Assembly: GCA_000091205.1 (NCBI GenBank)
Contig: AP006492.2
Length of the DNA: 64,000 bases
Source: Cyanidioschyzon merolae
Lineage: Eukaryota
Reading direction: 5' to 3' (one strand)
Made by a program: the position numbers and the translations under genes. Under the pieces are notes generated by a model. It did not search any database. It was not told the DNA's origin and saw only the letters and a program-made list of their open reading frames with translations. Shown piece by piece: positions 1 to 50,789 of this stretch (positions within the stretch are counted from its first letter, which is position 1; each line of letters starts with the position of its first letter).

Positions 1-2250
1 GGAGACTCCGGCTCGTTCCATCTTCAGAAATGGAGCCTCGTGCGGGACCGTGTCAAAGGCCTTTTGAAAGTCGGTGAAGCATACGTAAGCTGGTTGTTGG
101 CCGCTAATGGAGCAACGTTGCACCCTTCAATGAGGGTCAGGGCATGGCTCATGCACTCCTCGTGGCTCCGGAATCCAGCCTGTTCTGGGACGAGGAACTT
201 GCGTTCCTGGAGGCCTCTCTGAGTCCGGTTCGTGGGAATGGCGCAAAGTAGCTTCATGATTGACGGGATGAGGCGCATAGTCCGGTAGTTGTTCATGTCT
301 GTGTGGGAGTCCTTTTTGAGGACCGGTACGACCTCGGCAGTCCTCCATACATCCGGGATGTACGCCTCTTCGAACATGCGTTGGATGAGCTCCACAAGGC
401 GTTTGCCTAAGCTTGTGTCAGATTCATCTGGTATTGATGGTGTCCCTGTTGTCCCGTCTTTTGGGGTCACCAGTTTCATCCACTCCGCAGGGATACCGTC
501 GATGCCAGGTGTTTTGCGGTTGCTTGAGCATAGCACGGTCCGAACAGATTCAGGCCAGAAGATTGGGTCGTTCCATTCCGGTACCGGTTCGAGGCGCGGT
601 AGTTCTGCAGCATATTGGTGCCAATAGATTCTGTCTTGGCAGTGCCCAGTTGCGTCTTCATGCAGCTCTGTGCCGTGGTCCGTCCAGGCCTCATTCACTG
701 AGGCACGCTCCGTCCTCAGCGCTTCCTCATAAACGACTGGTGTGAGCCCCAGGCACTTTTTTGGTGGGTCCAGTCTCGATCGAATGTAGCGCCAGGTCTC
801 ATCTTCGTTGGTGCTCTCTAGCATAGATTTCGCCAGGGAGGCGATTTTGCGGGTTCGATCCTCTCGTTTGTCTTCTCTGGAAAGTTTCTTCTTTCTTTTG
901 ATAGCTTCTTCATGTTGTGCCTGTAGCGCCGTTAGGACTGCCTTCGCTTCCTTGTCTCCGGCGTTGGCGCGTATGGCGGTGTGGTTGACGATCTGATAGA
1001 GTCGGTGGTGCTCGTCAATCCGGGTATTGGTACGTCGTTTCAGGCACTGAGGTTTGCAACTGTTGCGTTCTGGTGCAAGCAGTCCCAGCTCTCCGGCAAT
1101 CTTCTGATTCCCATCTACAAACTCGCGTGCCAATTGGTCTAAAGATTTGTATGCACGGCTTTTCGGATCTTCAGCGCTGTGAGTAGGTGACTTGGTTTGG
1201 CGACGGCTTTCTTGAGTTCCTGCTGGGGTGCTCTTTCGGGGACGACATGTGATGGGCTCGCTGGAGCCCCCGCCTGTGGGCTCGTTCGGGAGTTCTTCTT
1301 TCTATTCTTCTGTTTTTTTCTTGCTGGTCTACTTCTTCTTCGGGCTCTTTCCTGAGCTACATTCTCTGGTTATTTTGCATCTAGGTGGATCATGAGGTTT
1401 CTGTGTCTCCTTCTCCGTGTCTGGTTGGGTCTCTTTTCCTATTGTACAGTCCTCGACTTGTATCAGTTCTTCATTACTCTACTAGTAATTCGATATCTCG
1501 TAGTTCAATACCGAGGCGATCCCGCTAATATTCCATGATGCGAAACCTATCGAGTCGTAGCGCATAAGGGAATAGGAGTAACGCTGCGGTACTCGAGAGA
1601 TACGTTGTCGATTGAGATGCACCCTCCACGGGGTGTGTGAGAGCACATGCCACCAGTGCCTCCTGCATTCCAGTCGTTCACTGAGTGTCTGCCGCAGCGC
1701 TAGCGTAGAATCAGATGTACGCTAGTCAAGGTCGATTCGAATGCGACCTTTATCTTGCCCGACGCTTTAACCTCCCCTCAACAATTGGGAACAGTCTGCA
1801 AACCACCCTTTCAGCGGCTACGTATCCGCTCCCCAAACACATAGGCGGGCAAGCCGCTTATTCCAGCTTCGACCGCAAACATACTGCCAGCCGTCTTCAA
1901 AAGTCTCCGCCGAGACTTTTTCCAAAGTTGAGGTAGGTACCCAAGGTAGGAGATAAAACTGAGCCCGAGTCCGAGGATCGATCCAAGATTTGCGCCCGAA
2001 CCTGCAGCGTTGATTCGGGAGGGGCGGATGACTGATCAGGATTTTCGTCAACATTTTCTGGTGCTACTGCCGCCGCCCCTCCGTTCGTTGCGCGGTCAAG
2101 GTCCCTGGCGTGGGCTTCCTTCGCCGTCGCCCAAGCACCCCGCGTTAACCCACTTTCAGAGCTTCTCCGGAAAAACTAGACCTCTAAGGCGGGCGTGGTG
2201 TGTGGGTCTTTAAGATAGTTGTTCTTTAATAAATAGTTTGTGACTGGTTT
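1..2250 (-). mobile_element. LINE-like non-LTR retrotransposon, copy 1 (3' part lies beyond window start); RT ORF plus ~1.1 kb 5' leader
   Basis: Sequence 1..2250 is near-identical to 41141..43393 (copy 2), including the RT ORF and the long leader ending in '...taaatagtttg(t/c)gact(g/a)gtttgttttgtt'. Homology to copy 2 stops at ~2250. Confidence 0.6.
24..1133 (-). pseudogene. LINE reverse transcriptase ORF (partial; 1-nt indel near 130 shifts frame relative to copy 2)
   Basis: Translation carries RT motifs (GIDGIPAEW, VVPVLKKD, YRTMRLIPS...). Compared with the copy-2 ORF (40919..42274) it diverges after '...SHALTL' because of an indel. Confidence 0.55.
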
Positions 2251-2717
2251 GTTTTGTTATCGGTGTTTTTGTACCCGGCGTTTTGCTCACCACGACCAGA
2301 TCGACGCCGAGATATCTCGGAGATCGGCCAGTCTACTGACACGATGCGAATGCCGCCGTTGAATGGAAACGCGATCCTGATCAGTAGCGTGTTGTTCTAC
2401 TGGAAAAATTGGATTTCCGTTAAGGTCTTAGCAGAGTACAGTTTTTTAGTTCATTTTTCTTTCAAACCTCAAACAAGTGTGTTCAAGTTTTTTTTCGCAG
2501 TATATAACAGAAGCGTTCACAGAGCGTTGTTTTTCAAAAAAAAAACTAAAAAAGGAAAGCTATGAGAAAGCAAGTCCACGATCCTGGAGGCCCAGGGTCG
2601 CCGGCTGCCAGAAAAAAACGAAAAACAGTGCCGAGTCCAGAAGAAAAGGGAGAGAAGAAGAACCGAAAGGGGGAGGCCCTACGTTGAAGGCTGCAACAAA
2701 GACGACTTTACGACGAG

Positions 2718-17205: not shown

Positions 17206-17910
17206 TATGTAGAACAAAGAACAGAGACTCACTACTAACTCGCAACGAGATAACAATTTCTTTTCCCCACTATGATAAATGTTAAAAGTGGGCAACGGTT
17301 TCCGCACTGTCGAACGTTTACCTTCTCGGCGGAAGGTCCCACGAGCCAGACGAGTCTGCCGGGCTAGTGCTTCGTGCACAAGCGAGCGACGAGTTCAGTG
17401 GCGAGACCTGAGCAGCTCGTCCGCAACGTAGTTTATTCTGGGACTAGGATCGGGTAGCCTGCGTCTGGGCGTCACTCTTGTTGCAGTGGCCTCCTAGTAT
17501 ATCAATTCGGATTGCCGCCTGTACTAGGTCCGTCTGCGCTGCTTGCAGGCTCCCAGAATGATTATGAATCCCAGATCCCCATCAGGTGAAGCTTTCCTCG
17601 ATCCGACGCCCTCTGTGGTTTGGCAACGCCGTTCTGCCTCCCTGCAGCATCTGCCCAGAGGTTTAGGCGCCATCGCCGATGCTCAAAGCAGGCAATCGGC
17701 ACACGATAGAACATACGAAACGACCAGTACATCCGAGAGAAAGTATAAGTAATGGAACTAGAAGACAGGGCACAGCATAATAAGTGTCTTCCCGTTTGCC
17801 TGTGACGATCCCGCAATCTGGGATCCATGGACCATAGAGACAATGTACAACCATGAAAAATACGGCCCAAGAGGCAGCCAGCGCATCCTTTTTGACCGTT
17901 ATGTACATAA

Positions 17911-26404: not shown

Positions 26405-28995
26405 CTCCCAAAAGAAAAACGTTGTGACCGCCAGTGGTGTACAGTAGTGGCGAGTGCTCCGCCTTAGACTAGACGTCGCCAACTGACGAGCTGATGCCTT
26501 CCAGTCTTTTTCGACCGGCCACCTACAACGGCTTCCAATTTTTTCTCATATAATCCCACTTTGAGTGGTTGTCCCTTAAAATTCTCTCTTGACAGCTGTG
26601 GAGGTTTTTTCTCCATCACCGCGCATCTCCTGATATTGATGGCGGTGTTAAAATCTCGGTTCACAAACTCCATACGTTTCTCGCCATTGTTGGTACTCAC
26701 CAATGCAAGCAATCCTCGAACTTTCGCCATCCTTTCCATCTGCTCCTCCGTCAGCGGTCCGTATTTTCTTATCCTCAGGGCTCCTCATGCACATTCCTAC
26801 CTCCACTCTCTGAAGTAGACACCCCAGCTCATGGTGTGTATACGACGTTCGAAACTCACCTACAGGTATTGTTACAAAGCGCCTTGCGCACTCCTTATAC
26901 GCACTCGTCGTTGGAGCTGGCGTAGTTCCTTTTTGGGTCTTCCAGCGCCCTGCTCCGTATGCTACTACGAGCCTCTGACTTTTTTTATCCTCCTTCAAGG
27001 CGCTCATCTGATTGAAAACGTTCGCAAATGCCCGCTGCCTCTCTCCGTATAGACTCATACGCAGACGAGCCCACCGGGGCATGGTATACTCCTTCCACAG
27101 TGCGTCCCAATGGGCAACGCGAACTTCCATGAATTTCCGAAAAGCAGTAAAGTCCGCTCCTCAGCTCGTGATCTCCCTCATAGCTTCGAGGTGATCCTTC
27201 ATTCCTGCATTCCACCTCTCATTTGTCTTCCTTGCATTCATTATATCCGATTCTAGACAGTATCTCGCTCTCGAGAACCTCAAAAGACGCATGTCTTTCT
27301 GAGGTAAGTTGCCGTCAGTACCATCATCCGCACGCTTGGGAGCAGCGATGGTTATGATATTCGTATTCCCAGGGTCCGCGCCGACGACAAAGTCGTTATC
27401 TTGCACCTCCTGCGTCGCAAGATCCGCCTCCTTCTTTTCTGCATTCTTCGCCGCGCCAACGAAAGTCGTTATCCTGCACCTCCTGTGCCGCAGGATCCGC
27501 CTCCTTCTCACATTCATGGTTCGTCACGGGCGCAGCCGAGGGCGGGACTGGACGATCTCTCTTCAACCGCCGATAGTGTATACACAAGGCTACTCCATCG
27601 GTATCGATCATCCCAGTGAGTACCTTTTGTTTGCTCACCCTCAGACGTTTGAAATCGAAGATATTCTTCCAGAACGTCTCCCGGTTTTCACCGTAGAATT
27701 CCTCCCTGCTAACATCGAACTCCGGACTGATCTCCTTCATGATGCCATGAAGGACTGCGGAGTCGATACTCACAAAATGTGACTTGATGGTGCACATCGG
27801 AACGATGTAGAAGCGCTTACCCATCAGGAAAGCCTTCCGTCTGTCCCAGTCTTCAGTTTTCCCCACTCAGCTTCATTTCTGCCTTGCGTTCGAGTTCTCG
27901 GTCCAGAAACACGAAATAACATAGGATGAGGCGATAGTATCTTCCCTTATCTTTTTCAACGCTGATATCTTGTCTGTTGGATTCGGCAGCCCCATGACTG
28001 CACGGTGCTCTTGTATATCCGCACGGATGACGGAGACCTTATTCGTGCTCTGGTTTGACGCCTTCTTGTCGACAAATTCGACGTCATCTTCACGCTTGCG
28101 ATCGTTCGTGATGCCATTGATAATCGCTGATATTCCTTTGGGACAGATGCCCGGGTAGAGTGCAAACAAGGCGCGTATCATGTAACGTTCGAGGTTCACT
28201 GTCAAATTGTTCTTCAGGTTCGCGGTATACTTTATCGCCCCGTATATGTAAATACCCCGGTCACCGCTTTATCGATTACTCTCGAGGCGGAATTCCGCCA
28301 AGTTTTCGTGGAGGGCATGCACTGGCTCATTTTCCCCCGCGCTTACTCTGTACCAAGCATCAGCTGACGAATAAACGTCGCATCGAAAACGCCGTCCGGG
28401 AACCTCGACCGTTTCCATGTGCGTCACTTCGCGATACATCTCCCTCGCCAAATGCATCAGTCCTGACGAGGCCTTGACAATACTCTTGGAGTACGAGTCG
28501 ATACGTTTTTCGATAGCGTTTCGCTAGTGTTCCCTGTAAGGATCCTTGATATGTTTAAGAAGAAAGGTTTTCACCAGCATCTCGTTGTACGGTTGTAGTT
28601 CTTGCGGCCATCGACTTGGGATATCCCCTTTTTGCGTTTTCTTCTTATGCTGTTCTTCTGAACTCGGTACTGTTTTTTTCTTTTCTGGCAGCCAGCGACA
28701 CTGGGGCGTCAGGATCGCCGACTTGCTTTTTCATAACATCCTTTTTTTGTTTTTTTTTGAAAAGAACGCTCCATCAACGCCTCTGATATAGACCGCTAAA
28801 TATCACTTGGATAAACTAAATTGAGCGTTGAAACATAATTGACCTGAAAAGTGTACTCTGTTATGACTTTAACGAATATACAACTTGTAATTGAGAGCAA
28901 CACGCTCAAGATCGCGATCGCGTTTCCCTTCACCAACGACATGCGCGTGGTGTCTCATACCTGCCAGATATGGAGGTGCGCGTATCGACCGCTAT
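26372..28995 (-). mobile_element. Fanzor/TnpB-like element, copy C (near-identical to copy D)
   Basis: ORF fragments 26464..26739, 26648..27130, 27161..27517, 27396..27866, 27873..28205 and 28269..28457 match the Fanzor protein. 5' leader ends ~28995 where LINE sequence begins. Confidence 0.5.
26464..28583 (-). pseudogene. Fanzor (TnpB-like) ORF, copy C (multiple frameshifts and stops)
   Basis: '[18 protein letters not shown]' (RuvC-I), 'EFRTSYTHHELGC', 'RMEFVNRDFNTAINI' (RuvC-III). Has TGG (W) where A/B have the TGA stop. Confidence 0.55.
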
Positions 28996-30380
28996 AATCC
29001 CTTGGCACACGGACTCGAACTCCAAATACCCTCGACAGAAGGTATAGCAGCAGGCTGCCGGGTACGTATATGGGCCAAAGGGCCCGCCATGCGCACCTCT
29101 TTGAGTCGGATTTTCATGCAGACCCCTACGCACCTCAAGAACACTTGGACGAAATTGACGCAGATTGGGCTGAAGCGCCTATTAGACGAACATACGCTCC
29201 CCAATCGTTCCCCAGGAATGTACAAGGCTCCCGCCGCCTCAAGCGAACGGTCCAAACAACAATATGGGAACGTAGACACGGAACCAGTCGCGCCAGTAAC
29301 GCCGGCTTGATCCTATACCGGAGCTACAACCTAGCATACACATGCAAGTACTGGTGGGAGGCGCTGGAATTCCCGGGACTTGCTCGAGGTACCCAGTGGC
29401 TCGCCAAAATCCGCGTTGGTGGCTTCTGGCTAGCGGCACCGGCTCTAAGCCGTATAGGGACACTGGAATCGCACTGGGAGTCACACTGTCCCTGCTATCG
29501 AGACGATAACCCCGAGACGCTGACATATTTAGGCTTACAGTGCCCGCGCTGGAAGCAGGAGCGCAGCGAGCTCCTTGAAGGACAGCAGCAGCTGGGCATC
29601 ACCATGATATCCGAGGGCCGGACACTCACTTTGAGAGCAGCACTGGCAACTGATGGTCCGCTAACAGATCCTCAGCGCTCATTAGTGGCGAACAAACTCA
29701 CATGCTACCTTCCAAGCGGAAGGTCCAGCGGATCGGATGCGCACACGGGCCCAGTGCTCTCTGCGCCTACCTTCTGTATGGGTGTCAAACACAAACCCGC
29801 ATTGCCAACCGACGACAACGCATTCCATGCATGATCACGAAAGAGAGAGGCGGCTCCCACGATATATCCTAACAGTCAAGTTTCTCCAGCGTGTCGAGCA
29901 GCGAAGACAAGCCTGCATCCGCAGACTGTCCGAGCACACACTGACGACGAGACCCGATTCTACGTCGGGTGAAGCGCACCTTGAGCCGACGCCCTCTGGG
30001 GTATAGAAAAGCCGTTCTGTCTCCATGATGCATCTGTACCAAAGGTAAAGACGCTATTGCGGACAATTAGGACAGGTTCTGGGCACACGATAGGACGTAT
30101 GAGATGACCAGAATATCCGAGATGAAGGATAGGTAATTTGACGTGGAGGTACGGGGGTTGATGGATACCCCACCGCGCACTGTAAAAAAATAACGCAAAA
30201 AGTAAGAAAAGAAAAATGCGCACAATCGGAGAACGCTGGCCCAAGTAAACGCGTTGTCCGTGAAAAAGGACTCATCGATGCCGGCAGGCGTGCAGGCAAT
30301 CAGGCAGGCGGCAATCTCAGCCACAGAATGCGACGGCGCGAGCGCACGTCCTTCCCGGGGCAATAAGCGGCGCCTTTCGT
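28975..30380 (+). mobile_element. LINE-like retrotransposon, copy 3 (5'-truncated: end of RT ORF, C-terminal Cys/His ORF, ~300-nt 3' UTR)
   Basis: 28891..29834 ORFs match copy 2 39551..40400 in inverse orientation. 30067..30363 matches 39076..39318 (3' UTR). Confidence 0.6.
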
Positions 30381-36551: not shown

Positions 36552-39110
36552 GCTCCTCCGCGGCACCCCACGCAACGCGCCAACAACGCCGTTCTGAACT
36601 CGAACGACGTCGAACGTGTACTGTATTGGCGACCAGTGCTCTAGACAAGAAGTCTCCAACTGATGTGCAGAGACCTCTCAGTTTTCTTGGACCGGCCACC
36701 TACTACGGCTTCCAACCTTTTCTCATATAATTCCACTTTGAGCGGTTGTCCCTTAAAATTCTCTCTTGTCAGCTGTGGAGGTTTTTTCTCCATCACCGCG
36801 CATCTCCTGATATTGATGGCGGTGTTAAAATCTCGGTTCACAAACTCCATACGTTTCTCGCCATTGTTGGTACTCACCAATGCAAGCAATCCTCGAACTT
36901 TCGCCATCCTTTCCATCTGCTCCTCCGTCAGCGGTCCGTATTTTTTTATCCTCAGGGCTCCTCATGCACATTCCTACCTCCACTCTCTGAAGTAGACACC
37001 CCAGCTCATGGTGTGTATACGACGTTCGAAACTCACCTACAGGTATTGTTACAAAGCGCCTTGCGCACTCCTTATACGCACTCGTCGTTGGAGCTGGCGT
37101 AGTTCCTTTTTGGGTCTTCCAGCGCCCTGCTCCGTATGCTACTACGAGCCTCTGACTTTTTTTATCCTCCTTCAAGGCGCTCATCTGATTGAAAACGTTC
37201 GCAAATGCCCGCTGCCTCTCTCCGTATAGACTCATACGCAGACGAGCCCACCGGGGCATGGTATACTCCTTCCACAGTGCGTCCCAATGGGCAACGCGAA
37301 CTTCCATGAATTTCCGAAAAGCAGTAAAGTCCGCTCCTCAGCTCGTGATCTCCCTCATAGCTTCGAGGTGATCCTTCATTCCTGCATTCCACCTCTCATT
37401 TGTCTTCCTTGCATTCATTATATCCGATTCTAGACAGTATCTCGCTCTCGAGAACCTCAAAAGACGCATGTCTTTCTGAGGTAAGTTGCCGTCAGTACCA
37501 TCATCCGCACGCTTGGGAGCAGCGATGGTTATGATATTCGTATTCCCAGGGACCGCGCCGACGACAAAGTCGTTATCTTGCACTTTCGGGGTCACAGGAC
37601 CCGCCTCCTTCTTTTCTGCATTCTTCGCCGCGCCAACGAAAGTCGTTATCCTGCACCTCCTGTGCCGCAGGATCCGCCTCCTTCTCACATTCATGGTTCG
37701 TCACGGGCGCAGCCGAGGGCGGGACTGGACGATCTCTCTTCAACCGCCGATAGTGTATACACAAGGCTACTCCATCGGTATCGATCATCCCAGTGAGTAC
37801 CTTTTGTTTGCTCACCCTCAGACGTTTGAAATCGAAGATATTCTTCCAGAACGTCTCCCGGTTTTCACCGTAGAATTCCTCCCTGCTAACATCGAACTCC
37901 GGACTGATCTCCTTCATGATGCCATGAAGGACTGCGGAGTCGATACTCACAAAATGTGACTTGATGGTGCACATCGGAACGATGTAGAAGCGCTTACCCA
38001 TCAGGAAAGCCTTCCGTCTGTCCCAGTCTTCAGTTTTCCCCACTCAGCTTCATTTCTGCCTTGCGTTCGAGTTCTCGGTCCAGAAACACGAAATAACATA
38101 GGATGAGGCGATAGTATCTTCCCTTATCTTTTTCAACGCTGATATCTTGTCTGTTGGATTCGGCAGCCCCATGACTGCACGGTGCTCTTGTATATCCGCA
38201 CGGATGACGGAGACCTTATTCGTGCTCTGGTTTGACGCCTTCTTGTCGACAAATTCGACGTCATCTTCACGCTTGCGATCGTTCGTGATGCCATTGATAA
38301 TCGCTGATATTCCTTTGGGACAGATGCCCGGGTAGAGTGCAAACAAGGCGCGTATCATGTAACGTTCGAGGTTCACTGTCAAATTGTTCTTCAGGTTCGC
38401 GGTATACTTTATCGCCCCGTATATGTAAATACCCCGGTCACCGCTTTATCGATTACTCTCGAGGCGGAATTCCGCCAAGTTTTCGTGGAGGGCATGCACT
38501 GGCTCATTTTCCCCCGCGCTTACTCTGTACCAAGCATCAGCTGACGAATAAACGTCGCATCGAAAACGCCGTCCGGGAACCTCGACCGTTTCCATGTGCG
38601 TCACTTCGCGATACATCTCCCTCGCCAAATGCATCAGTCCTGACGAGGCCTTGACAATACTCTTGGAGTACGAGTCGATACGTTTTTCGATAGCGTTTCG
38701 CTAGTGTTCCCTGTAAGGATCCTTGATATGTTTAAGAAGAAAGGTTTTCACCAGCATCTCGTTGTACGGTTGTAGTTCTTGCGGCCATCGACTTGGAATA
38801 TCCCCTTTTTGCGTTTTCTTCTTATGCTGTTCTTCTGAACTCGGTACTGTTTTTTTTCTTTTCTGGCAGCCAGCGACACTGGGGCGTCAGGATCGCCGAC
38901 TTGCTTTTTCATAACTTCCTTTTTAAGTTTTTATAAATCAGCCCTCCGTGAACGCTTCTGTTATATACTGAGAAAAACAATCGAATATTTTCACTTGAGG
39001 GTTGAAACACAATCGAACTGAAAACTATACATGCCTATGAAGTTAACAAAAATACAACTTTGACATTAGAGCTACATGCTAGATATCAAGATCACGTTTC
39101 CCTTTAACGG
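36552..39110 (-). mobile_element. Fanzor/TnpB-like element, copy D (5' leader truncated at ~39110 by LINE copy 2)
   Basis: 36641..38700 is essentially identical to 26464..28520 (copy C). 3' end is more diverged than A/B/C. Confidence 0.5.
36641..38760 (-). pseudogene. Fanzor (TnpB-like) ORF, copy D (frameshifted)
   Basis: ORFs 36641..36916, 36825..37307, 37338..37694, 37573..38043 and 38050..38382 match copy C. Confidence 0.55.
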
Positions 39111-39550
39111 CGGCATGTTTTTCATTAACAACGCGTTTACTTGGGCCAGCGTTCTCCGATTGTGCGCATTTTTCTTTTCTTACTTTTTGCGTTATTTTTT
39201 TACAGTGCGCGGTGGGGTATCCATCAACCCCCGTACCTCCACGTCACATTACCTATACTTCATCTCGGATATTCTGGTCATCTCATACGTCCTATCGTGT
39301 GCCCAGAACCTGTCCTAATTGTCCGCAATAGCGTCTTTACCTTTGGTACAGATGCATCATGGAGACAGAACGGCTTTTCTATACCACAAAGGGCGTCGGC
39401 TCAAGGTGCGCTTCACCCGACGTAGAATCGGGTCTCGTTGTCAGTGTGTGCTCGGACAGTCTGCGGATGCAGGCTTGTCTTCGCTGCTCGACACGCTGGA
39501 GAAACTTGACTGTTAGGATATATCGTGGGAGCCGCCTCTCTCTTTCGAGA

Positions 39551-40321
39551 TCATGCATGGAATGCGTTGTCGTCGGTTGGCAATGCGGGTTTGTGTTTGA
39601 CACCCATACAGAAGGTAGGCGCAGAGAGCACTGGGCCCGTGTGCGCATCCGATCCGCTGGACCTTCCGCCTAGAAGGTAGCACGTGAGTTTGTTCGCCAC
39701 TAATGAGCGCTGAGGCTCCGTTAGCGGACCATCAGTTGCCAGTGCTGCTCTCAAAGTGAGTGTCCGGCCCTCGGCTATCACGGTGATGCTCAGCTGCTGC
39801 TGTCCTGCAAGGAGCTCGCTGCGCTCCTGCTTCGAGCGCGGGCACTGTAAGCCTAAATATGTCAGCGTCTCCGGGTTATCGTTTCCGCAGCAGGAACAGT
39901 GTGACTCCCAGTGCGATTCCAGTGTCCCTATACGGCTTAGAGCCCGTGCTGGTAGCCAGAAGCCACCAACGCGGATTTTCGCGAGCCACTGGGTACCTCG
40001 AGCAAGCCCCGGAAATTCCAGCACCTCCCACCAGTACTTGCATGTGTATGCTAGGTTGTAGTTCCGGTATAGAGTCAAGCCGGCGTTACTGGCGCGACTG
40101 GTTCCGTGTCTACGTTCCCATATTGTTGTTTGGACCGTTCGCTTGAGGCGGCGGGAGCCTTGTACATTCCTGGGGATCGATTGGGGAGCGTGTTGTCTCC
40201 TAAGAGGCGCTTCAGCCCAATCTGCGTCGATTTCATCCAAGTGTTCTTGCGGTGCGTTCGGGTCTGCATGAAAATCCGACTCAAAGAGGTGCGCGTGGCG
40301 GGCCCTTTGGCCCGTATACAT
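39551..40321 (-). CDS. LINE C-terminal ORF with Cys/His motif, overlapping the RT ORF end in another frame
   Basis: 'ESHWESHCSCCGNDNPETLTYLGLQCP'. The same overlap arrangement is present in copy 3 (29070..29834 vs 28891..29310). Confidence 0.5.
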   Translation of the reverse strand: MYTGQRARHAHLFESDFHADPNAPQEHLDEIDADWAEAPLRRQHAPQSIPRNVQGSRRLKRTVQTTIWERRHGTSRASNAGLTLYRNYNLAYTCKYWWEVLEFPGLARGTQWLAKIRVGGFWLPARALSRIGTLESHWESHCSCCGNDNPETLTYLGLQCPRSKQERSELLAGQQQLSITVIAEGRTLTLRAALATDGPLTEPQRSLVANKLTCYLLGGRSSGSDAHTGPVLSAPTFCMGVKHKPALPTDDNAFHA

Positions 40322-42274
40322 GCCCGGCAGCCTGCTGCTATCGCTTCTATTGAGAGTATTTGGAGTTCAAGTCCGAGTGCCAGCGCGGTGGTTGCCCTGC
40401 TCTGCATTGAGCATCCAACAACAACGAGTCTCATTGCCCCGTTGGCGGCTGTCTGCGGACGCGAGGCATTTGTGTGCTTCATGCCGCACCACTCAGCACC
40501 CCAGGTCGCAGGCTGGGTGATACACATCCTTAGTGCCCTCGTACGAATTGCTATGCGGATAGAGGGGTCGGATGGGAATGAGCGTGCGATCGCTGTACCT
40601 CTATGCATCTTGGCGATCATCTCGTCGACGTGTGCCTTTTCGTCGAGCGTCGGCGTGAGACCGACCCCCAGGTAGCGATATTTTTCCACGATCGGGATTT
40701 CCGGATTCTGCAACCGCCACGAGCGATTGCGAATGCTCTGCGAGTCTCCATGGATGACCATGACGCCGCACTTCGATGCTCCTATGCTCATCTCCCAGCG
40801 ATCGGCCCAGTCGCTGACTTGTTGCATGCTAGCCGCAAGCGTTTCAGGGGCGGGTGCCAACAGCACGACATCGTCCGCAACTAGACGGCCTGCGAGGCGG
40901 TTCCTATGTGAGGGCTCCTCATCGGGCATCTCCACAGTCTATCCACGGCACCTCAAGCCCGTATTGTCTGCAGTTGTTCAGCAGATCGTTGATGAAGATG
41001 TTGAAAAGGAGCGGGGATGCGCGCTCGCCCTGCCGCAGTCCACGGCGGATTCTTCTGGAAGGGGTTCTTGAGCTGTCGCCCAGTCGGATGCGCATCCATG
41101 AGTCTGCATAGAGCGCACGGAAGAACGCTAAGCACTTTCCGGAGACTCCGGCGCGTTCCATCTTCAGAAATGGAGCCTCGTGCGGGACCGTGTCAAAGGC
41201 CTTTTGAAAGTCAATGAAGCATACGTAAGTTGGTTGTTGGCCGCTAATGGAGCGACGTTGCACCACTTCAGTTAGGGTCAGGACATGGCTCATGCACTCC
41301 TCGTGGCTCCGGAATCCAGCCTGTTCTGGGGCGAAGAACTTGCGTTCCTGGAGGCCTCTCTGGATCCGGTTCGTGGGAATGGCGCAAAGTAGCTTCATGA
41401 TTGACGGGATGAGGCGCATAGAGCGGTAGTTGTTCATGTCTGTGTGGGAGTCCTTTTTGAGGATCGGTACGACCTCAGCAGTCCTCCATACATCCGGGAT
41501 GTACGCCTCTTCGAACATGCGTTGGATGAGCTCCACAAGGCGTTTGCCTAAGCTTGTGTCAGATTCATCTGGTATTGATGGTGTCCCTGTTGTCCCGTCT
41601 TTTGGGGTCACCAGTTTCATCCACTCCGCAGGGATACCGTCGATGCCAGGTGTTTTGCGGTTGCATGACCTTAAGAGGGTCCGGACAGATTCAGGCCAGA
41701 AGATTGGGTCGTTCCATTCCGGTACCGATTCGAGGCGCGGTAGTTCTGCGGCATACTGGTGCCAATAGATTGGGTCTTGGCAGTGCCCAGTTGCTTCTTC
41801 ATGCAGCTCTGTGCCGTGGTCCGTCCAGGCCTCATTCACTGAGGCACGCTCCGTCCTCAGCGCTTCCTCATAAACGATTGGTGTGAGCCCCAGGCACTTT
41901 TTTGGTGGGTCCAGTCTCGGTCGAATGTAGCGCCAGGTCTCATCTTCGTTGGTGCTCTCTAGCATAGATTTCGCCAGGGAGGCGATTTCGCGGTTTCGAT
42001 CCTCTCGTTTGTCTTCTCTGGAAAGTTTCTTCTTTCTTTTGATAGCTTCTTCATGTTGCGCCTGTAGCGCCGTTAGGACTGCCTTCGCTTCCTTGTCTCC
42101 GGCGTTGACGCGTATGGCGGTGTGGTTGACGATCTGATAGAGTCGGTGGCGCTCGTCAATCCGGGTATTGGTACGTCGTTTCAGGCACTGAGGTTTGCAA
42201 CTGTTGCGTTCTGGTGCAAGCAGTCCCAGCTCTCCGGCAATCTTCTGATTCCCATCTACAAACTCGCGTGCCAA
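40075..42274 (-). CDS. LINE ORF encoding reverse transcriptase (two overlapping ORF segments, frame change near 40919..40935); no AP-endonuclease domain recognisable
   Basis: 'FIDFQKAFDTVPHE', 'LRQGERASPLLFNIF', 'LVADDVVLLAP' (FADD-box equivalent); only ~120 aa N-terminal to the RT. Confidence 0.6.
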
Positions 42275-44086
42275 TTGGTCTAAAGATTTGTATGCACGGC
42301 TTTTCGGATCTTCAGCGCTGTGAGTAGGTGACTTGGTTTGGCGACGGCTTTCTTGAGTTCCTGCTGGGGTGCTCTTTCGGGGACGACTTGTGATGGGCTC
42401 GCTGGAGCCCCCGCCTGTGGGCTCGTTCGGGAGTTCTTCTTTCTATTCTTCTGTTTTTCTCTTGCTGGTTTGCTTCTTCATCGGGCTCTTTCCTGAGCTA
42501 CATTCTCTGGTTACTTTGCATCTAGGTGGATCATGAGGTTTCTGTGTCTCCTTCTCCGTGTCTGGTTGGGTCTCTTTTCCTTTTGTACAGTCCTCGACTT
42601 GTATCAGTTCTTCATTACTGTACTGGTAATTCGATATCTCGTAGTTCAATACCGAGGCGATCCCACAAATATTCCATGATGCGAAACCTATCGAGTCGTA
42701 GCGCATAAGGGAATAGGAGTAACGCTGCGGTACTCGAGAGATACGTTGTCGATTGAGATGCACCCTCCACGGAGTGTGTGAGAGCACATGCCACCAGCGC
42801 CTCCTACATTCCAGTCGTTCACTGAGTGTCTGCCGCAGCGCTAGCGTAGAATCAGATGTACGCTAGTCAAGGTCGATTCAAATGCGACCTTTATATTGCC
42901 CGACGCTTTAACCTCCCCTCAACAATTGGGAACAGTCTGCAAACCACCCTTTCAGCGGCTACGTATCCGCTCCCCAAACACATAGGCGGGCAAGCCGCTT
43001 ATTCCAGCTTCGACCGCAAACATACTGCCAGCCGTCTTCCAAAGTATCCGCCGAAATTGTTCCCAAAGTTGAGGTAGGTACCCAAGGTAGGAGATAAAAC
43101 TGAGCCCGAGTCCGAGGATCGATCCAAGATTTGCGCCCGAACCTGCAGCGTTGATTCGGGAGGGGCGGATGACTAATCAGGATTTTCGTCAACATTTTCT
43201 GGTGCTACTGCCGCCGCCCCTCCGTTCGTTGCGCGGTCAAGGTCCCTGGCGTGGGCTTCCTTCGCCGTCGCCCAAGCACCCCGCGTTAACCCACTTTCAG
43301 AGCTTCTCCGGAAAAACTAGACCTTTAAGGCGGGCGTGGTGTGTGGGTCTTTAAGATAGTTGTTCTTTAATAAATAGTTTGCGACTAGTTTGTTTTGTTG
43401 TTTTTTTTTTGTTTTTTTCCGCACGACGATTTCTCTTTTTTGGTTACGAAGAACGTTCCATACACCACCGCCGTGCGATCATGGCGGCGTTTCATTGGTT
43501 GCGGATTGAACCGCCTCCGCGTCGTTGCACCATTCGATTCGAAACGTAGGGCATACGCGACGCCTGTTCCCGTCGGATGGGGACGTGTCGCCGGGCCGGT
43601 GCGGGTACCGCCCCGGGGATGTCGGCACCCAGACCCCGCGAACGGGGACGCAGGAGCAGTTCCCTCGAGCGGCCCCGCGAAATCAACAGACGACCATCGA
43701 TGCGTAATACGTGGCGTAAATCAGGTATGCAACCGATCGAAAGGATACCAAGTTACGACGGCGACGGTTTATTCACTGACGCCTTCTCCAGACCTTGGCG
43801 TTTTCCTGCTTCAATCCAGTTTAGACAGGGCGTTAGAGTTTTCACGGAGGGAACCTCGTCTATTCGGACCAGTCTGCTCTCTTTTTGGAGGGACAGGTCA
43901 AGATCCAGCGTTTTCCTGGCGTGTTGTGTTTGGGAGTGCGGAGCGCTTTCTGCTTGTGCAGTGGACGAAAGCGGCTTTTGGTTGTCTCGTCACTTTGGAC
44001 GCTACTGGAGAATAGAAGTCACTCGCTGTCTTCTACAGCTAGGAAACGCACTTATGTGATTTTATATTTCACTTAATAGGCAAATA

Positions 44087-47000
44087 ATGCGACCGAATAT
44101 GCAACGATTATGGAATATTTTTGCTCTCGGGCTTGTGCTGTTCCTTCTTGCGAGACTTTCGCAGACGCTTTTAATAACAACCGTGAGGGACGGTGAAGCT
44201 GAGGCTATAAAACGTTCCGCTGCTCGCCATGAGCTATGGGATGATTGTTCTCCGTTCAGGCGCATAGAGGGTTCTTGGGCGCGGAGATGGCGAAGTGTCG
44301 TTTTCCATAGGGAAACTTGCGCTCGCTTCCGTGTGACGGACAGAGAACTGGTGAGCGTCGACGGGGAATCTGACAGCTGCGGCATTTCAGGAGTATGCGT
44401 TAGCCCATCCACCGAACTCGAACGATGGTCTCAACTACCGGGGAAGAGAGTAGCGGGACACGGGGAAGTGTTGCGTTTCTCGAACGTTCCAACGCACTGG
44501 AAAAGAATGGACTGTGTCCACGGCTCGCTGAAAGGCAACAGCATTCCCGTTAACGTAGAAAACGGGAAATATTGTATTTTACCCGATGGACAGGGGTTCA
44601 ACGTGTTATCGCCTGCCGCGGAAATCGAGCGGAGTGAAAGTCCTGCGGAAACAGCCGCGGACGAACTGGGATCTCATGAAGGTACTTATTCATGCCAGCC
44701 TGCCAGGCAGGTTGTGGAACCATGCTCTCCCGAAAGAAGGAGACTGGTAAAGGAAGCTTCGGGAGTAAGCAAGACTCTAGGCAGCTGCTTTTCGACCTGG
44801 CGGTCCTGGCGGTCCTGGTGGTCCTGGCAGTTCAGGTACCCCTGGTAGTTCGGATGGTGCCGGGGGTCCCGGAGGCGGTGGCCCCGGAGGCGGTGGCCCC
44901 GGAGGCGGTGGCCCTGGTGGCGGTGGCCCTGGTGGCGGTGGCCCTGGTGGCGGTGGCCCTGGTGGCGGTGGCCCTGGTGGCGGAGGTCCCGCTTCAGCTT
45001 CCGCTTCAGCTTCCGCTTCAGCTTCCGCTTCAGCAAGTGCATCGTACTCGCTGAGCTACTACGACTCGAGGAGCGCCTCAGCCTCAGCCTCAGCCTCAGC
45101 CTCAGCCTCAGCCTCCGCGTCGGCGTCGGCTAGCGCATCGTACTCGCTGAGCTACTATGACTCGAAGAGCGCTTCAGCCTCGGCGTCAGAGTCAGCCTCA
45201 GGCTCAGCCTCGGCAAGTGCCTCTTACTCGCTGAGCTACTATGACTCGAAGAGCGCATCAGTGTCGGCATCAGCCTCGGCGTCAGCCTCTGCGTCATCTT
45301 CGGCAAGTGCGTCGTACTCGCTGAGCTTTTATGATTCAAAGAGTGCTTCAGCCTCAGCATCATCTTCGGCAAGTGCGTCGTACTCGCTGAGCTACTATGA
45401 CTCGAAGAGCGCTTCAGCCTCGGCGTCAGCCTCAGCATCATCTTCAGCGAGTGCGTCGTACTCGCTGAGCTACTATGACTCAAAGAGCGCTTCGGCCTCA
45501 GCATCATATTCGGCAAGTGCCTCGTATTCGCTGAGCTACTATGACTCGAAGAGCGCTTCGGCCTCAGCATCATCTTCGGCGTCGTCATCAGCCTCGGCGT
45601 CCGCAAGTGCATCCTACTCGCTGAGCTACTATGACTCGAAGAGCGCATCAGTGTCGGCATCAGCCTCCGCGTCTGCTTCAGCATCATATTCGGCAAGTGC
45701 CTTGTACTCGCTGAGCTTTTATGATTCGAAGAGCGCTTCGGCGTCTGCGTCAGCTTCGGCGTCGTCATCAGCCTCGGCGTCCGCAAGTGCATCGTACTCG
45801 CTGAGCTACTATGACTCGAAGAGCGCATCAGTGTCGGCGTCAGCCTCCGCGTCTGCTTCAGCATCATATTCGGCAAGTGCCTCGTACTCGCTGAGCTTTT
45901 ATGATTCGAAGAGCGCTTCGGCGTCTGCGTCAGCTTCGGCAAGTGCGTCGTACTCGCTGAGCTACTATGACTCGAAGAGCGCTTCGGCCTCAGCATCATC
46001 TTCGGCAAGTGCGTCGTACTCGCTGAGCTACTATGACTCGAAGAGCGCTTCAGCCTCGGCGTCAGCCTCAGCATCATCTTCAGCGAGTGCGTCATACTCG
46101 CTGAGCTACTATGACTCAAAGAGCGCTTCAGCCTCGGCGTCAGCCTCAGCATCATCTTCGGCAAGTGCGTCGTACTCGCTGAGCTACTATGACTCGAAGA
46201 GCGCTTCAGTGTCGGCGTCTGCTTCGGCGTCGTCATCAGCCTCGGCGTCCGCAAGTGCATCCTACTCGCTGAGCTACTATGACTCGAAGAGCGCATCAGT
46301 GTCGGCGTCAGCCTCCGCGTCTGCTTCAGCATCATCTTCGGCAAGTGCCTCGTACTCGCTGAGCTTTTATGATTCGAAGAGCGCTTCAGTGTCGGCGTCT
46401 GCTTCGGCGTCGTCGTCAGCCTCGGCGTCAGCAAGTGCATCGTATTCGCTGAGCTACTATGACTCTAAGAGTGCTTCAGCCTCGGCGTCAGCCTCAGCAT
46501 CGTCTTCAGCAAGTGCGTCGTACTCGCTGAGCTACTATGACTCGAAGAGCGCTTCAGCCTCGGCGTCAGCCTCTGCATCATATTCGGCAAGTGCCTCTTA
46601 CTCGCTGAGCTACTATGACTCGAAGAGCGCTTCAGGCTCGGCGTCAGCCTCAGCATCATCTTCGGCGAGTGCGTCGTACTCGCTGAGCTACTATGACTCG
46701 AAGAGCGCTTCAGGCTCGGCGTCAGCCTCAGCATCATCTTCAGCGAGTGCGTCGTACTCGCTGAGCTACTATGACTCAAAGAGCGCTTCGGCGTCAGCAT
46801 CATCTTCGGCAAGTGCGTCGTATTCGCTGAGCTACTATGACTCGAAGAGCGCTTCGGCGTCTGCGTCAGCTTCGGCGTCGTCATCAGCCTCGGCGTCCGC
46901 AAGTGCATCGTACTCGCTGAGCTACTATGACTCAAAGAGCGCATCAGTGTCGGCGTCAGCCTCCGCGTCTGCTTCAGCATCATATTCGGCAAGTGCCTCG

Positions 47001-50000
47001 TACTCGCTGAGCTTTTATGATTCGAAGAGCGCTTCGGCGTCTGCGTCAGCTTCGGCGAGTGCGTCGTACTCGCTGAGCTACTATGACTCGAAGAGCTCTT
47101 CAGCCTCGGCGTCATCTTCGGCGAGTGCGTCGTACTCGCTGAGCTACTATGACTCGAAGAGCGCTTCAGCCTCGGCGTCAGCCTCAGCATCATCTTCAGC
47201 GAGTGCGTCATACTCGCTGAGCTACTATGACTCAAAGAGCGCTTCGGCCTCAGCATCATATTCGGCAAGTGCCTCGTATTCGCTGAGCTACTATGACTCG
47301 AAGAGCGCTTCGGCCTCGGCGTCAGCCTCTGCATCATCTTCAGCGAGTGCGTCGTACTCGCTGAGCTACTATGACTCAAAGAGCGCTTCGGCCTCAGCAT
47401 CATATTCGGCAAGTGCCTCGTATTCGCTGAGCTACTATGACTCGAAGAGCGCTTCAGTGTCGGCGTCTGCTTCGGCGTCGTCGTCAGCCTCGGCGTCAGC
47501 AAGTGCATCGTACTCGCTGAGCTACTATGACTCGAAGAGCGCATCAGTGTCGGCGTCAGCCTCCGCGTCTGCTTCAGCATCATCTTCGGCAAGTGCCTCG
47601 TACTCGCTGAGCTTTTATGATTCGAAGAGCGCTTCAGTGTCGGCGTCCGCTTCGGCGTCGTCGTCAGCCTCGGCGTCAGCTAGTGCATCGTATTCGCTGA
47701 GCTACTATGACTCGAAGAGCGCTTCAGCCTCGGCGTCAGCCTCCGCGTCTGTTTCAGCATCATCTTCAGCAAGTGCCTCTTACTCGCTGAGCTTTTATGA
47801 TTCGAAGAGCGCTTCAGTGTCGGCGTCATCTTCAGCAAGTGCCTCGTACTCGCTGAGCTACTATGACTCGAAGAGCGCTTCGGCGTCAGCATCATCTTCG
47901 GCAAGTGCGTCGTATTCGCTGAGCTACTATGACTCGGTGAGCGCTTCGGCCTCTGCATCATATTCGGCAAGTGCCTCTTACTCGCTGAGCTACTATGACT
48001 CGAAGAGCGCGTCAGCCTCGGCGTCAGCATCATCTTCAGCCTCAGCAAGTGCATCGTACTCGCTAAGCTACTATGATTCGAAGAGTGCTTCAGCCTCAGC
48101 ATCATCTTCGGCAAGTGCATCGTACTCGCTGAGCTACTATGTCTCGAAGAGCGCATCAGTGTCGGCGTCAGCCTCCGCGTCTGCTTCAGCCTCGGCGTCA
48201 GCAAGTGCGTCGTACTCGCTGAGCTTTTATGATTCGAAGAGCGCTTCAGTGTCGGCGTCAGCTTCGGCAAGTGCGTCGTATTCGCTGAGCTACTATGACT
48301 CGAAGAGCGCTTCGGCCTCAGCATCATCTTCGGCGTCGTCATCAGCCTCGGCGTCCGCAAGTGCATCGTACTCGCTGAGCTACTATGACTCGAAGAGCGC
48401 ATCAGTGTCGGCGTCAGCCTCCGCGTCTGCTTCAGCATCATATTCGGCAAGTGCCTTGTACTCGCTGAGCTTTTATGATTCGAAGAGCGCTTCGGCGTCT
48501 GCGTCAGCTTCGGCGTCGTCATCAGCCTCGGCGTCCGCAAGTGCATCGTACTCGCTGAGCTACTATGACTCGAAGAGCGCATCAGTGTCGGCGTCAGCCT
48601 CCGCGTCTGCTTCAGCATCATCTTCAGCAAGTGCCTCGTACTCGCTGAGCTTTTATGATTCGAAGAGCGCTTCGGCGTCTGCGTCAGCTTCGGCGTCGTC
48701 ATCATCCTCGGCGTCCGCAAGTGCATCGTACTCGCTGAGCTACTATGACTCGAAGAGCGCATCAGTGTCGGCATCAGCCTCCGCGTCTGCTTCAGCCTCG
48801 GCGTCAGCAAGTGCCTCTTACTCGCTGAGCTTTTATGATTCGAAGAGCGCTTCAGTGTCGGCGTCATCTTCAGCAAGTGCGTCGTACTCGCTGAGCTACT
48901 ATGACTCGAAGAGCGCTTCGGCTTCAGCATCATCTTCGGCAAGTGCGTCGTACTCGCTGAGCTACTATGACTCGAAGAGCGCGTCAGCCTCTGCGTCTGC
49001 CTCGGTGGCAGCATCATCTTCAGCCTCAGCAAGTGCCTCGTATTCGCTGAGCTACTATGACTCGAAGAGCGCTTCGGCCTCTGCGTCTGCCTCGGTGACA
49101 GCGTCTGCCTCAGGCTCAGCGTCGGCAAGTGCGTCGTATTCGCTGAGCTACTATGACTCGAAGAGCGCATCGGCGTCAGCATCATCTTCGGCAAGTGCGT
49201 CGTACTCGCTGAGCTACTATGACTCGCAGAGCGCGTCAGCCTCTGCGTCTGCCTCGGTGGCAGCATCATCTTCAGCCTCAGCAAGTGCCTCGTATTCGCT
49301 GAGCTACTATGACTCGAAGAGCGCTTCGGCCTCTGCGTCTGCCTCGGTGTCAGCGTCTGCCTCAGGCTCAGCGTCGGCAAGTGCGTCGTATTCGCTGAGC
49401 TACTATGACTCGAAGAGCGCATCGGCGTCAGCATCATCTTCGGCAAGTGCGTCGTACTCGCTGAGCTACTATGACTCGAAGAGCGCTTCGGCCTCAGCAT
49501 CATCTTCAGCAAGTGCGTCGTACTCGCTGAGCTACTATGACTCGAAGAGCGCTTCGGCTTCAGCTTCATCTTCAGCAAGTGCGTCGTACTCGCTGAGCTA
49601 CTATGACTCGAAGAGCGCGTCAGCCTCTGCGTCTGCCTCGGTGGCAGCATCATCTTCAGCCTCAGCAAGTGCCTCGTATTCGCTGAGCTACTATGACTCG
49701 AAGAGCGCTTCGGCCTCTGCGTCTGCCTCGGTGTCAGCGTCTGCCTCAGGCTCAGCGTCGGCAAGTGCGTCGTATTCGCTGAGCTACTATGACTCGAAGA
49801 GCGCATCGGCGTCAGCATCATCTTCGGCAAGTGCGTCGTATTCGCTGAGCTACTATGACTCGCAGAGCGCGTCAGCCTCTGCGTCTGCCTCGGTGGCAGC
49901 ATCATCTTCAGCCTCAGCAAGTGCCTCGTATTCGCTGAGCTACTATGACTCGAAGAGCGCTTCGGCCTCTGCGTCTGCCTCGGTGTCAGCGTCTGCCTCA

Positions 50001-50789
50001 GGCTCAGCGTCGGCAAGTGCGTCGTACTCGCTGAGCTACTATGACTCGAAGAGCGCTTCGGCCTCTTCGTCTGCCTCGGTCACATCTAGCCAATATGCAA
50101 GTGCGTCTGTGAGCGCGTCTGTTTCTTTCTCCAGTTCTTTGAGTGCATCTGCTTCTTCTAGTGTGTCTGTTTCGAGTACTACAACTGGCAATCCTGTACG
50201 TTTGATACTGAAAGAGGATTTTTTTACGGGTGTTGCCTCTGAGTCTGCGTTGGCTGACGCGCTTCGCCATGCCCTGGAGGTACTCTTCGGTATTACTCCA
50301 CTGAGTTTTATTGTGAATAGTATGCGTGAGATCACTAAGTCAAGTATTCTTGAGTCGAACTTCAGGTTGGACGCAGACGAGTTTGTGAGTTGCATTAGCA
50401 GTGCGCAATCTCTGATACTTTATAATACGACGAGCGTCTGGGATGCCGATGGTTCAACGGCTTCGCAGATCGCATCGGGACTTCGCGAAGCGTTGAAAAA
50501 TGGCACACTCAGCGCCGAACTATCCAAGTTTTACGGCTCTCCAGTCTGTGTAGCGCCGAATGGAACAGTAACTATAGCCGGATTGGTCACTTCGAGCTCG
50601 AGTCCGCTCCCTGTCTGGGTGATCGTTATCATAGTGGTGCTTGGAACTCTATTACTGTCTAGTTGCTGTGCGCTTCTTGTATTCGCGGTGCGTCGTCGGA
50701 AACGACGACATGCCGCGGAGAGCGAAGCGCAAGAGGATCAGACAGACGCTGAAACGGCCGACACCGGAATAGATGACTTCGGTTTGTAG
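44087..50789 (+). CDS. giant Ser/Ala-rich tandem-repeat surface protein (signal peptide, GGGGP stretch, ~65 x ~26-aa repeats, C-terminal domain, TM anchor, short cytoplasmic tail); needs a frame change near 44747..44780
   Basis: Signal peptide '[27 protein letters not shown]'. Frame changes to the repeat frame, which is open from 44781 to 50789. C-terminal TM '[28 protein letters not shown]' followed by 'RRRKRRH'. Confidence 0.55.
44747..44780 (+). other. putative 34-nt GT-AG mini-intron (gtaaag...ctctag) joining the signal-peptide exon to the repeat exon; the alternative is a frameshift
   Basis: Exon 1 frame ends with codon CTG at 44744..44746. Removing 34 nt (34 = 3n+1) joins it in-frame to GCA at 44781, the first codon after the frame-0 TAG at 44778..44780. 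Confidence 0.3.
44860..44990 (+). repeat. 15-nt tandem repeat (ggtggcccYggWggc) encoding GGGGP x ~8
   Basis: Direct reading. Confidence 0.7.
44991..50100 (+). repeat. tandem array of ~66-102-nt (modal ~78 nt) repeats encoding '(SA)n [13 protein letters not shown]' units, ~65 copies
   Basis: Direct reading. Also generates long antisense and out-of-frame pseudo-ORFs. Confidence 0.9.

Follow-up and report, generated by a model that had tools for sequence, protein, structure and literature searches.

We analysed a 64,000-nucleotide (nt) stretch of contig AP006492.2 from the Cyanidioschyzon merolae genome (GenBank assembly GCA_000091205.1), referred to below as the window. At positions 39551-42274 a first-pass annotation had flagged a retrotransposon resembling a long interspersed nuclear element (LINE), without a recognisable endonuclease and with a conserved, overlapping open reading frame (ORF) that encodes a Cys/His motif. 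Self-BLAST against two further copies in the window (copies B and C), comparison of junctions and a metagenome match delimit a full-length element, copy A, at 39107-43399 on the minus strand, with its 5' end at 43399 and a 3' end reading '...GTTGTTAATGAAAAA'. The metagenome sequence, contig L001 (identical to L002; 5.4 kb, from a hot spring), matches copy A with 92% identity over 4271 nt. The C. merolae 10D protein P0002, annotated 'retroelement, alive', is 100% identical to residues 104-451 of the first ORF of copy A. By these matches, the element is the already-known class I element of C. merolae, here present as a dead full-length copy. Twenty-six class I elements have been reported in C. 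merolae, all closest to retrotransposons without long terminal repeats (non-LTR) and 3 of them with an 'intact RT ORF' (RT, reverse transcriptase); domain structure, endonuclease loss, frame breaks and target sites are not described in the covered passages of that paper (Nozaki et al., 2007; PMC1955436). A scan of metagenome contigs provided a wider sample of 60 loci with copies 68-96% identical. We conclude that copy A is very probably the decayed copy of an element with a single ancestral ORF, that its reading frames were separated by insertions and deletions (indels), and that the family has lost its APE-type endonuclease domain (APE).

Three ORFs, all on the minus strand, cover the flagged region. 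ORF1 (40919..42274; 451 amino acids, aa, from stop to stop) contains a linker preceding the RT and RT motifs 0-4. ORF2 (40075..40935, 286 aa), which lies in the +1 frame, contains RT motifs 5-7 ('LVADDVVLL') and the thumb. ORF3 (39551..40321, 256 aa) is again in the frame of ORF1; tblastn and alignment identify in it a linker, a degenerate zinc knuckle and an 'LLGG' segment, and it has no Pfam match. Pfam RVT_1 matches ORF1 at profile positions 2-143 (E = 1.2e-18) and ORF2 at positions 153-204, including the 'ADD' motif (E = 1.2e-4), the two ORFs jointly spanning profile positions 2-204. The LINE-type RT motifs 0-7, including (F/Y/V)ADD, are present, and the closest solved structure in the PDB to the RT with its preceding linker is L1 ORF2p (E = 4.6e-18; R2, E = 7e-14). 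The copies are without LTRs, are truncated to variable extents at the 5' end and have an A-rich 3' end, as LINEs do. The assignment to LINE-type retrotransposons is supported.

Not all of the earlier description of the ORFs can be kept. A single RT ORF had been assumed, but the RT is already split between ORF1 and ORF2 by a T at 40928, a break that had been overlooked. The ~120 aa counted before the RT core are correct from the first ATG, and from stop to stop the distance is about 205-270 aa. The described end of the RT frame, '...EPVAPVTPA*', was found as the end of ORF2 (40075..40935, minus strand), and the second ORF placed ~80 codons upstream in another frame corresponds to ORF3, which starts 82 codons (247 nt) before the stop of ORF2 and encodes 'HCSCCGNDNPETLTYLGLQCP'.

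Alignment with L001 shows the frame changes as indels, among further indels of copy A. Frame break 1 is a 1-nt T insertion at 40928 ('GGAGA[T]GCCCGATGA'), which splits the RT between motifs 4 and 5, and frame break 2 is a 2-nt CC insertion in a C-run at 40185-40186 ('GCTCCCCAAT' versus 'GCTCCAAT'). Frame break 3 is a shift near 39610, located in an indel hot spot (~39600-39630) where net indels range from -4 to +3 among copies. Further upstream on the minus strand, in the interval 42383..42445, three-frame translation and comparison with L001 reveal an in-frame TAG (42443-42445) and a 1-nt deletion near 42383; the ancestral reading is continuous across this region in P0007, P0009 and L026. When the T and the CC are deleted and one base is restored at 42383, an uninterrupted ORF of 974 aa results.

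The distant relatives support a single ORF as the ancestral state. In all six of them (P0027, P0028, P0033, P0035, P0036 and P0162) one continuous ORF runs from RT through thumb, CxxC-x9-H-x4-C motif and 'LLGG' segment to a C-terminal helix. In tblastn all six map colinearly onto copy A in frames 1, 0 and 1, with switches at ~40935 and 40160-40200; their homology is kept in the ORF2 frame from ~40935 to 40171-40207 and is taken up again in the ORF3 frame at 40141-40189. L062, a relative with 50% identity, is likewise continuous across the site of the CC insertion. Since each side of the CC has homology in a single frame only, two frames that happen to be open account for the 82-codon overlap. 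ORF2 is truly coding only to ~40187, its last 37 codons being ORF3 sequence read out of frame, and ORF3 is truly coding only downstream of ~40184. An alternative open stretch of 45 codons in DNA of 56% GC is not improbable by chance (roughly 0.1 by our own estimate). Judged from the alignments, the overlap of ORF2 and ORF3 is caused by the 2-nt CC insertion. The first-pass annotation had proposed a separate, conserved Cys/His ORF, against which it had set the possibility that most copies have one continuous ORF. The latter is largely what we found, as the sequence from RT to Cys/His is continuous in all six distant relatives and in about half of the close copies, and a separate ORF is not upheld.

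The Cys/His motif itself ('HCSCCGNDNPETLTYLGLQCP'; 39839..39901, minus strand) was located by alignment with relatives. Its ancestral form is CPxC-x9-H-x4-C, from which the window copy departs by a Pro-to-Ser exchange and by Tyr in place of the His ligand. All relatives and outgroups have the His, and L013 reads 'HCPCCGNETPETLTHLGLQCP'. The Tyr for the His zinc ligand ('ETLTYLGLQCP') is found in most family copies and not in the window copy alone; the zinc knuckle of the family master may already have been degenerate. Although the motif aligns with that of the relatives, their match to zf-RVT (PF13966) is below threshold (P0036: E = 7e-4, 20.6 bits against a cut-off of 27.5), and zf-RVT does not reach the Pfam threshold in the ORFs, in P0007/P0009 or in the C-terminal proteins. 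ORF3 had also been taken as the end of the protein, which is not the case, because the conserved C-terminal helix lies in the third frame. Alignment places the true C-terminal segment ('...RRLPRYILTVKFLQRVEQRRQACIRRL...*') at 39379..39648 on the minus strand, cut from ORF3 by frame break 3. Read from 39648 to 39379 it encodes '...ILTVKFLQRVEQRRQACIRRL...', which aligns with the C-terminal helix of P0028, P0033, P0035 and P0036; P0135 and P0154 read through the region of break 3 and have the same C-terminal helix.

The first-pass annotation found no recognisable endonuclease, and our searches agree. Pfam detects neither Exo_endo_phos nor another nuclease domain in the three window ORFs, and none in the small ORFs upstream, in P0007/P0009 (E <= 10) or in the C-terminal proteins, where RVT_1 is the only match. 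With the APE of L063 as tblastn query, no APE body was found in the window or in the 60 loci, and no domain of the restriction-like endonuclease type was detected either. Relatives do carry an endonuclease. In the contig of P0035 (L063) a full Exo_endo_phos domain (E = 2.2e-13) lies upstream of the RT, in that of P0036 a PF03372 gene directly precedes the RT gene, and P0162 (1190 aa), which starts 'MPDLAQSVFASWNIRSTKGKRHELMWFLKREQVDVLALQETF', combines APE and RT in one ORF.

Comparison of the copies with each other and with P0162 places the probable ancestral ORF start of copy A at 42587..42706 (minus strand), where a putative vestigial APE N-terminus, 'MRYDSIGFASWNICGIASVLNYEISNYQYSNEELIQVEDC', is encoded. 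The stub, '...(M/T)RYDS(I/L)(G/V)FASWNI.GIAS...EELIQVEDS', is present in every copy found with this 5' part, and is followed by ~100 aa of low-complexity sequence rich in Lys, Glu, Thr and Gln in place of the remainder of the APE. The sequence VFASWNI of copy L026 is identical to residues 8-14 of P0162 (the window copy reads GFASWNI), and the spacing from Asn to Glu is 26 residues in the stub versus 27 in P0162. Clear homology to P0162 resumes at its residue 345, in the linker that follows the APE (E = 5e-16). These similarities are suggestive of a ~40-residue stub that represents the vestigial N-terminus of an APE, left by a deletion older than the expansion of the family. An APE encoded further upstream, which had been raised earlier, is thus found only as a vestige: ~40 residues that resemble an APE from its first strand to 'QE' lie in the RT frame, and there is no APE body. 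As far as sequence can tell, the missing endonuclease is real and family-wide among the copies examined.

We propose that the ancestral protein would have had ~1,100-1,150 aa in one ORF, comprising N-terminus, APE, helical linker, RT, thumb, CCHC zinc knuckle and C-terminal helix, an architecture that would match that of the living relative P0162. Before the family expanded, nearly the whole APE would have been deleted or swapped for the low-complexity stretch, leaving approximately the first 40 residues. Single copies would subsequently have decayed, and copy A would have gained the stop, the 1-nt deletion, the T, the CC and the shift near 39610, and lost the His ligand. Because the family has no nuclease of its own, integration would proceed via a nuclease supplied in trans or via pre-existing nicks or breaks. 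Frameshifted and internally deleted copies would spread by mobilisation in trans and by homogenising gene conversion.

The indels of copy A recur to different extents among the metagenome copies. At site 1 the T is present in 18 of 26 loci, absent in 7 and compensated in 1 (L034), in which a 1-nt deletion follows 7 nt downstream of the T. At site 2 the CC is present in 11 of 25 hot-spring loci and absent in 13, in which RT and Cys/His share one frame, and the remaining locus (L013) has the CC plus 1 nt and is back in frame. The overlapping ORF, which had been described as conserved, is thus a two-frame state of 11 loci, with the two parts fused in 13 and compensated in 1. Its recurrence in a third copy was confirmed. 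Copy C, on the plus strand, has an ORF at 29070..29834 and carries the CC, in addition to the 11 metagenome loci; its layout is that of copy A because the part that they share (29003-30267 in copy C, 39118-40382 in copy A) is 95% identical and has 0 indels. Database proteins at the ORF2/ORF3 junction are fused in 6 cases (P0124-P0127, P0130 and P0135) and separate in 7. A neighbour-joining tree of 15 copies is star-like with scattered indel states and allows no call on the ancestral state, which was therefore settled with the outgroups, namely the six relatives and L062. In line with decay, a full-length intact ORF is absent from all of the 14 longest loci examined.

Several observations weigh against the reading of copy A as a decayed single-ORF element of an APE-less family. 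The homology between stub and APE is statistically weak (hhalign P = 0.005-0.007, BLASTP E = 0.32). Frameshifted states are common, the T being the majority state and the CC being found in ~half of the copies, and the annotated 'alive' C. merolae proteins P0002 and P0004 both stop at the T-induced stop. An intact source copy was not found among the copies examined. This spread of T and CC is unlike that of dead-on-arrival mutations, and needs mobilisation in trans, gene conversion or translational bypass. The compensated variants L034 and L013 hint that frameshifted lineages were still under selection. The copies from the finished genome that we compared are 3 (A, B and C) of the 26 reported, and some metagenome contigs look chimeric, which makes combinations of states less reliable and leaves local indel states unaffected. 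The contig pairs L025/L026 and L009/L026 agree in one LINE flank only, which indicates chimeric assembly or recombination across LINE copies.

Defective copies have spread. A deletion derivative without RT, in which element positions 1-1830 are joined to 3999-4282, has the same internal junction in L025, L036, L027, L028, L053, L060 and L061. It is found with at least 4 different 3' flanks, from which it follows that the family was mobilised in trans. L039 has the 3' flank of copy C and an interior 99.6% identical to copy A, whereas copy C of the window is only 93% identical to copy A there. This difference indicates that, in one of the strains, the two inverted copies underwent gene conversion. 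Mobilisation in trans and gene conversion can account for the high frequency of T and CC.

A programmed frameshift, suggested in the first-pass annotation, is not supported, because the indel states vary and the two-frame state is not universal, and because signals for recoding are missing: the overlap contains no in-frame X_XXY_YYZ heptamer (the only two of this type are in a different frame and precede the homology switch), the 90 nt after either site fold no better than shuffled sequences (z = +0.7), so that no stable downstream structure was found, and Rfam gives no match at E <= 0.1. The overlap is ordinary mutational decay and not a recoding signal. A less regular translational bypass, by which copies with T or CC would still give a full-length or two-part RT, could use a +1 shift at 'CGA UGA G' or reinitiation at the ATG created by the T, and a -1 shift in the ORF2/ORF3 overlap. 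In its favour, 18 of 26 loci have the T, at least 6 different 5' flanks are represented among the T-state copies, and about half of the loci have the extra 2 nt. The shift site would be tightly defined, as the 0-frame stop follows at most 3 codons after the insertion and the +1 frame is open for just 17 nt, and the T (+1) together with the CC (+2) gives the C-terminal part its original frame. The T insertion also makes 'GAG ATG CCC' in the ORF2 frame. At 40919-40931 this T-created ATG stands 8 nt before the TGA of ORF1 ('GAG ATG CCC GAT GA'), a layout that could be compatible with termination-reinitiation. However, copies free of the insertions exist and all outgroups are without them, the window copy contains further stops and shifts beyond any bypass, and the compensating indels of L034 and L013 return a single frame, which marks the frameshift as a defect. 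Together with the missing heptamer and stable structure, these points make bypass very unlikely. Still less probable, in our view, is that ORF3 encodes an independent small Cys-rich nucleic-acid-binding protein from its own start at 40321. It is an ATG-initiated ORF of 256 aa in copies A and C, and 7 metagenome proteins begin at the equivalent Met, but its first 45 codons overlap sequence in the other frame that is homologous to the RT thumb of all relatives. Moreover, no relative has it as a separate ORF, it is fused to the RT in half of the copies, its His ligand is gone and its own C-terminal end is frameshifted.

The absence of an endonuclease leads to two further alternatives. The C-terminal region might contain a restriction-like nuclease (of the R2/CRE-type, PD-(D/E)xK) or another nuclease that nicks the target, which the first-pass annotation had left open. 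In R2-type elements a CCHC motif precedes the restriction-like endonuclease, and the element has no other nuclease. The tail past the Cys motif, however, is just ~105-165 aa long and matches in alignment the C-termini of relatives whose APE lies at the N-terminus (P0162; L063/P0035); no Pfam family is matched in it, and the closest solved RT is that of L1 ORF2p and not that of R2. An AlphaFold (AF2) model of the C-terminal 332 aa (P0135, 20 sequences) is mostly helical with a single beta-hairpin and of low confidence (mean predicted local distance difference test score, pLDDT, 56); Foldseek finds no fold match in the PDB at E < 6, a weak negative given this pLDDT. We regard a nuclease in the tail as extremely improbable. 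The other alternative is that the APE-less copies are ordinary non-autonomous derivatives, for which an APE-bearing master of the same family in Cyanidioschyzon, extant or past, gave endonuclease and RT in trans. Mobilisation in trans is clear from the RT-less derivative in at least 4 loci, and APE-bearing relatives occur in other metagenomes. These relatives are just ~35-50% identical in the RT, though, and an APE was found in 0 of 60 loci and in no protein of ~80% or higher identity among the matches listed. As the identical stub is present in every copy found with the 5' part, such a master seems unlikely. We therefore retain decay from a single ORF in a family that has lost its APE.

Many LINE copies adjoin a second repeat family, R. 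Four copies of R, ~2.5 kb long and with 71-96% mutual identity, were found in the window by repeat comparison, at 2362-4974 (plus strand), 14769-17108 (minus), 26437-28930 (minus) and 36600..39106 (minus). According to the repeat families and the map of LINE and R matches, the last of these is not part of the LINE, and its 5' end is joined directly to the 3' end of copy A. All three LINE copies of the window adjoin the 5' terminus of R (at 2259-2362, 28931-29002 and 39100-39120), as do many metagenome copies. LINE and R are arranged tail-to-head in copy A, L052, L042/L044 and the L016 group (L016/L007/L021), and head-to-head in copies B and C, L002, L049, L050 and L060. The 5' end of the LINE differs among these cases, from element position 8 in L002 to 3018 in copy C. 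In the same pairs of loci, identity is 83-88% between the R sides and 87-91% between the LINE sides. The greater divergence of the R sides suggests that the R copies are the older ones, with the LINE inserting beside them, repeatedly at the R boundary. R termini make up ~0.3% of the genome (a rough estimate from 253 copies x 200 bp), and roughly judged the association is far beyond chance.

The R copies could be recognised neither as a LINE-dependent retroelement nor, from domain and PDB matches, as a Fanzor. They have no A tail at their 3' ends, which carry a palindromic 'CGTTCGA..TCGAACG' motif. The R ORFs have no match in Pfam or among PDB sequences; an R ORF contains a RuvC-I-like motif, 'GLDPGSTT'. 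The covered passages of PMC1955436 report a ~3-kb interspersed C. merolae element with a WSV486-like ORF, present in 253 copies and amounting to about 5% of the genome. Apparently the same element is the Fanzor1-encoding CMe-1A, the 5' 635 bp of which also occur as TE-N2_CMe (Bao and Jurka). On the basis of this literature and the RuvC-I-like motif, R is probably the Fanzor1 element CMe-1A. We speculate that a LINE lineage without endonuclease reached at least 15 loci through integration in both orientations at the 5' boundary of R, priming from nicks or breaks that another agent makes there; candidates are the Fanzor nuclease, an enzyme of the host and a terminus prone to form structure. This scenario is unlikely; if true, it would be a natural case of site-preferring, endonuclease-independent target-primed reverse transcription.

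The remaining parts of the element and its surroundings are as follows. The 5' untranslated region (UTR) of copy A comprises ~530 nt (42871..43399, minus strand), as judged from open frames compared across 21 copies; it contains no conserved ORF1, the open frames of 45-94 aa varying in frame and position among these copies. The 3' UTR (39108..39378, minus strand) ends in a short A run. At the 3' junctions of 22 places the ends read '...ATG(G)AAAAA' with 4-9 A and without a long poly(A), and the 5' ends are ragged. No target-site duplication of 5 nt or more was seen by eye at the junctions of copies A and C, where the junctions are A-rich, the copies ~10% diverged and some metagenome contigs chimeric. 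Copy B (1..2258, minus strand) comprises 2.26 kb from the 5' end of the element, is cut off at the window edge and is 97% identical to 41141-43399; it has a 1-nt frameshift of its own, with the indel at 41265. Copy C (29003..30277, plus strand) is 5'-truncated and extends from element position 3018 to the end, as seen from self-BLAST and the truncation junction. Fragments 69-76% identical to the 3' UTR of the LINE occur at 17582-17754 of the window, ~470 nt from another R 5' end, and in L008 (7633-7812), L041 (5721-5885) and L060 (11611-11799), and possibly derive from a related LINE family of greater age.

With three LINE and four R copies, positions 1-44000 form a local cluster of mobile elements, in a genome reported to consist of only 0.7% transposons. 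No telomere repeats (AATGGGGGG) are present in the window, which is therefore not subtelomeric. A long imperfect tandem array at 44991-50789, with units of 66-90 nt that are all multiples of 6, lies inside an open frame of 1842 aa (45261..50789, plus strand); from its sequence this frame looks like a large repetitive protein-coding gene beside the element.

The overlapping Cys/His ORF that had been flagged should not be pursued as a recoding signal; what merits follow-up is that the whole family has lost the APE and that its insertions cluster at the R terminus. The transposon complement of C. merolae ranks among the smallest of free-living eukaryotes, and the sole retrotransposon family of this alga appears to be endonuclease-free in all copies examined. 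The family has nonetheless left many dispersed copies, including non-autonomous ones, with many insertions at one terminus of the most abundant repeat of the genome. If confirmed genome-wide, this would offer a compact and genetically tractable system for nuclease-free LINE integration, possibly with a nick from another mobile element, in an organism with efficient homologous recombination and a finished 16.5-Mb genome.

Among known systems, the class I elements of C. merolae labelled 'retroelement, alive' (PMC1955436) are the same element. The ORF annotated as 'intact', to which this database label refers, stops within the RT at the frameshift. The family resembles APE-type single-ORF LINEs (L1/Tx1-like) in its linker, RT, thumb, CxxC-x9-H-x4-C motif, 'LLGG' segment and C-terminal helix, and in its 5' truncation and short A tail, but its APE is reduced to a stub of ~40 aa and it has no ORF1. 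The nearest full-length relative is the metagenome protein P0162 (1190 aa) and the nearest solved structure is that of human L1 ORF2p. LINEs of the R2/CRE/NeSL type have a C-terminal CCHC motif and a restriction-like endonuclease. Like these, the C. merolae family is without an N-terminal APE and has a Cys/His motif C-terminal to the RT; unlike these, it has no restriction-like endonuclease, its RT is nearer to L1 than to R2, and its relatives carry an APE.

Endonuclease-deficient retroelements offer a different comparison. Gladyshev and Arkhipova are said to have described, in 2007, endonuclease-deficient Penelope-like Athena/Coprina elements at telomeres, and Morrish and colleagues reportedly observed endonuclease-independent L1 insertion at breaks or telomeres (2002, 2007). 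The C. merolae family is similar in having multiplied without a nuclease, and in that no target-site duplication was seen for copies A and C; it differs in that the window is not telomeric, the insertions cluster at the 5' boundary of R, and its activity without a nuclease is inferred. In Xenopus, Tx1L inserts into Tx1D and is a target-specific LINE within another transposon, a specificity credited to its own APE. The C. merolae family has no APE, and its insertions occur in both orientations and not in every copy; what it shares with Tx1-type elements is repeated, independent LINE insertion at the same place of another repeat family, here the 5' terminus of R.

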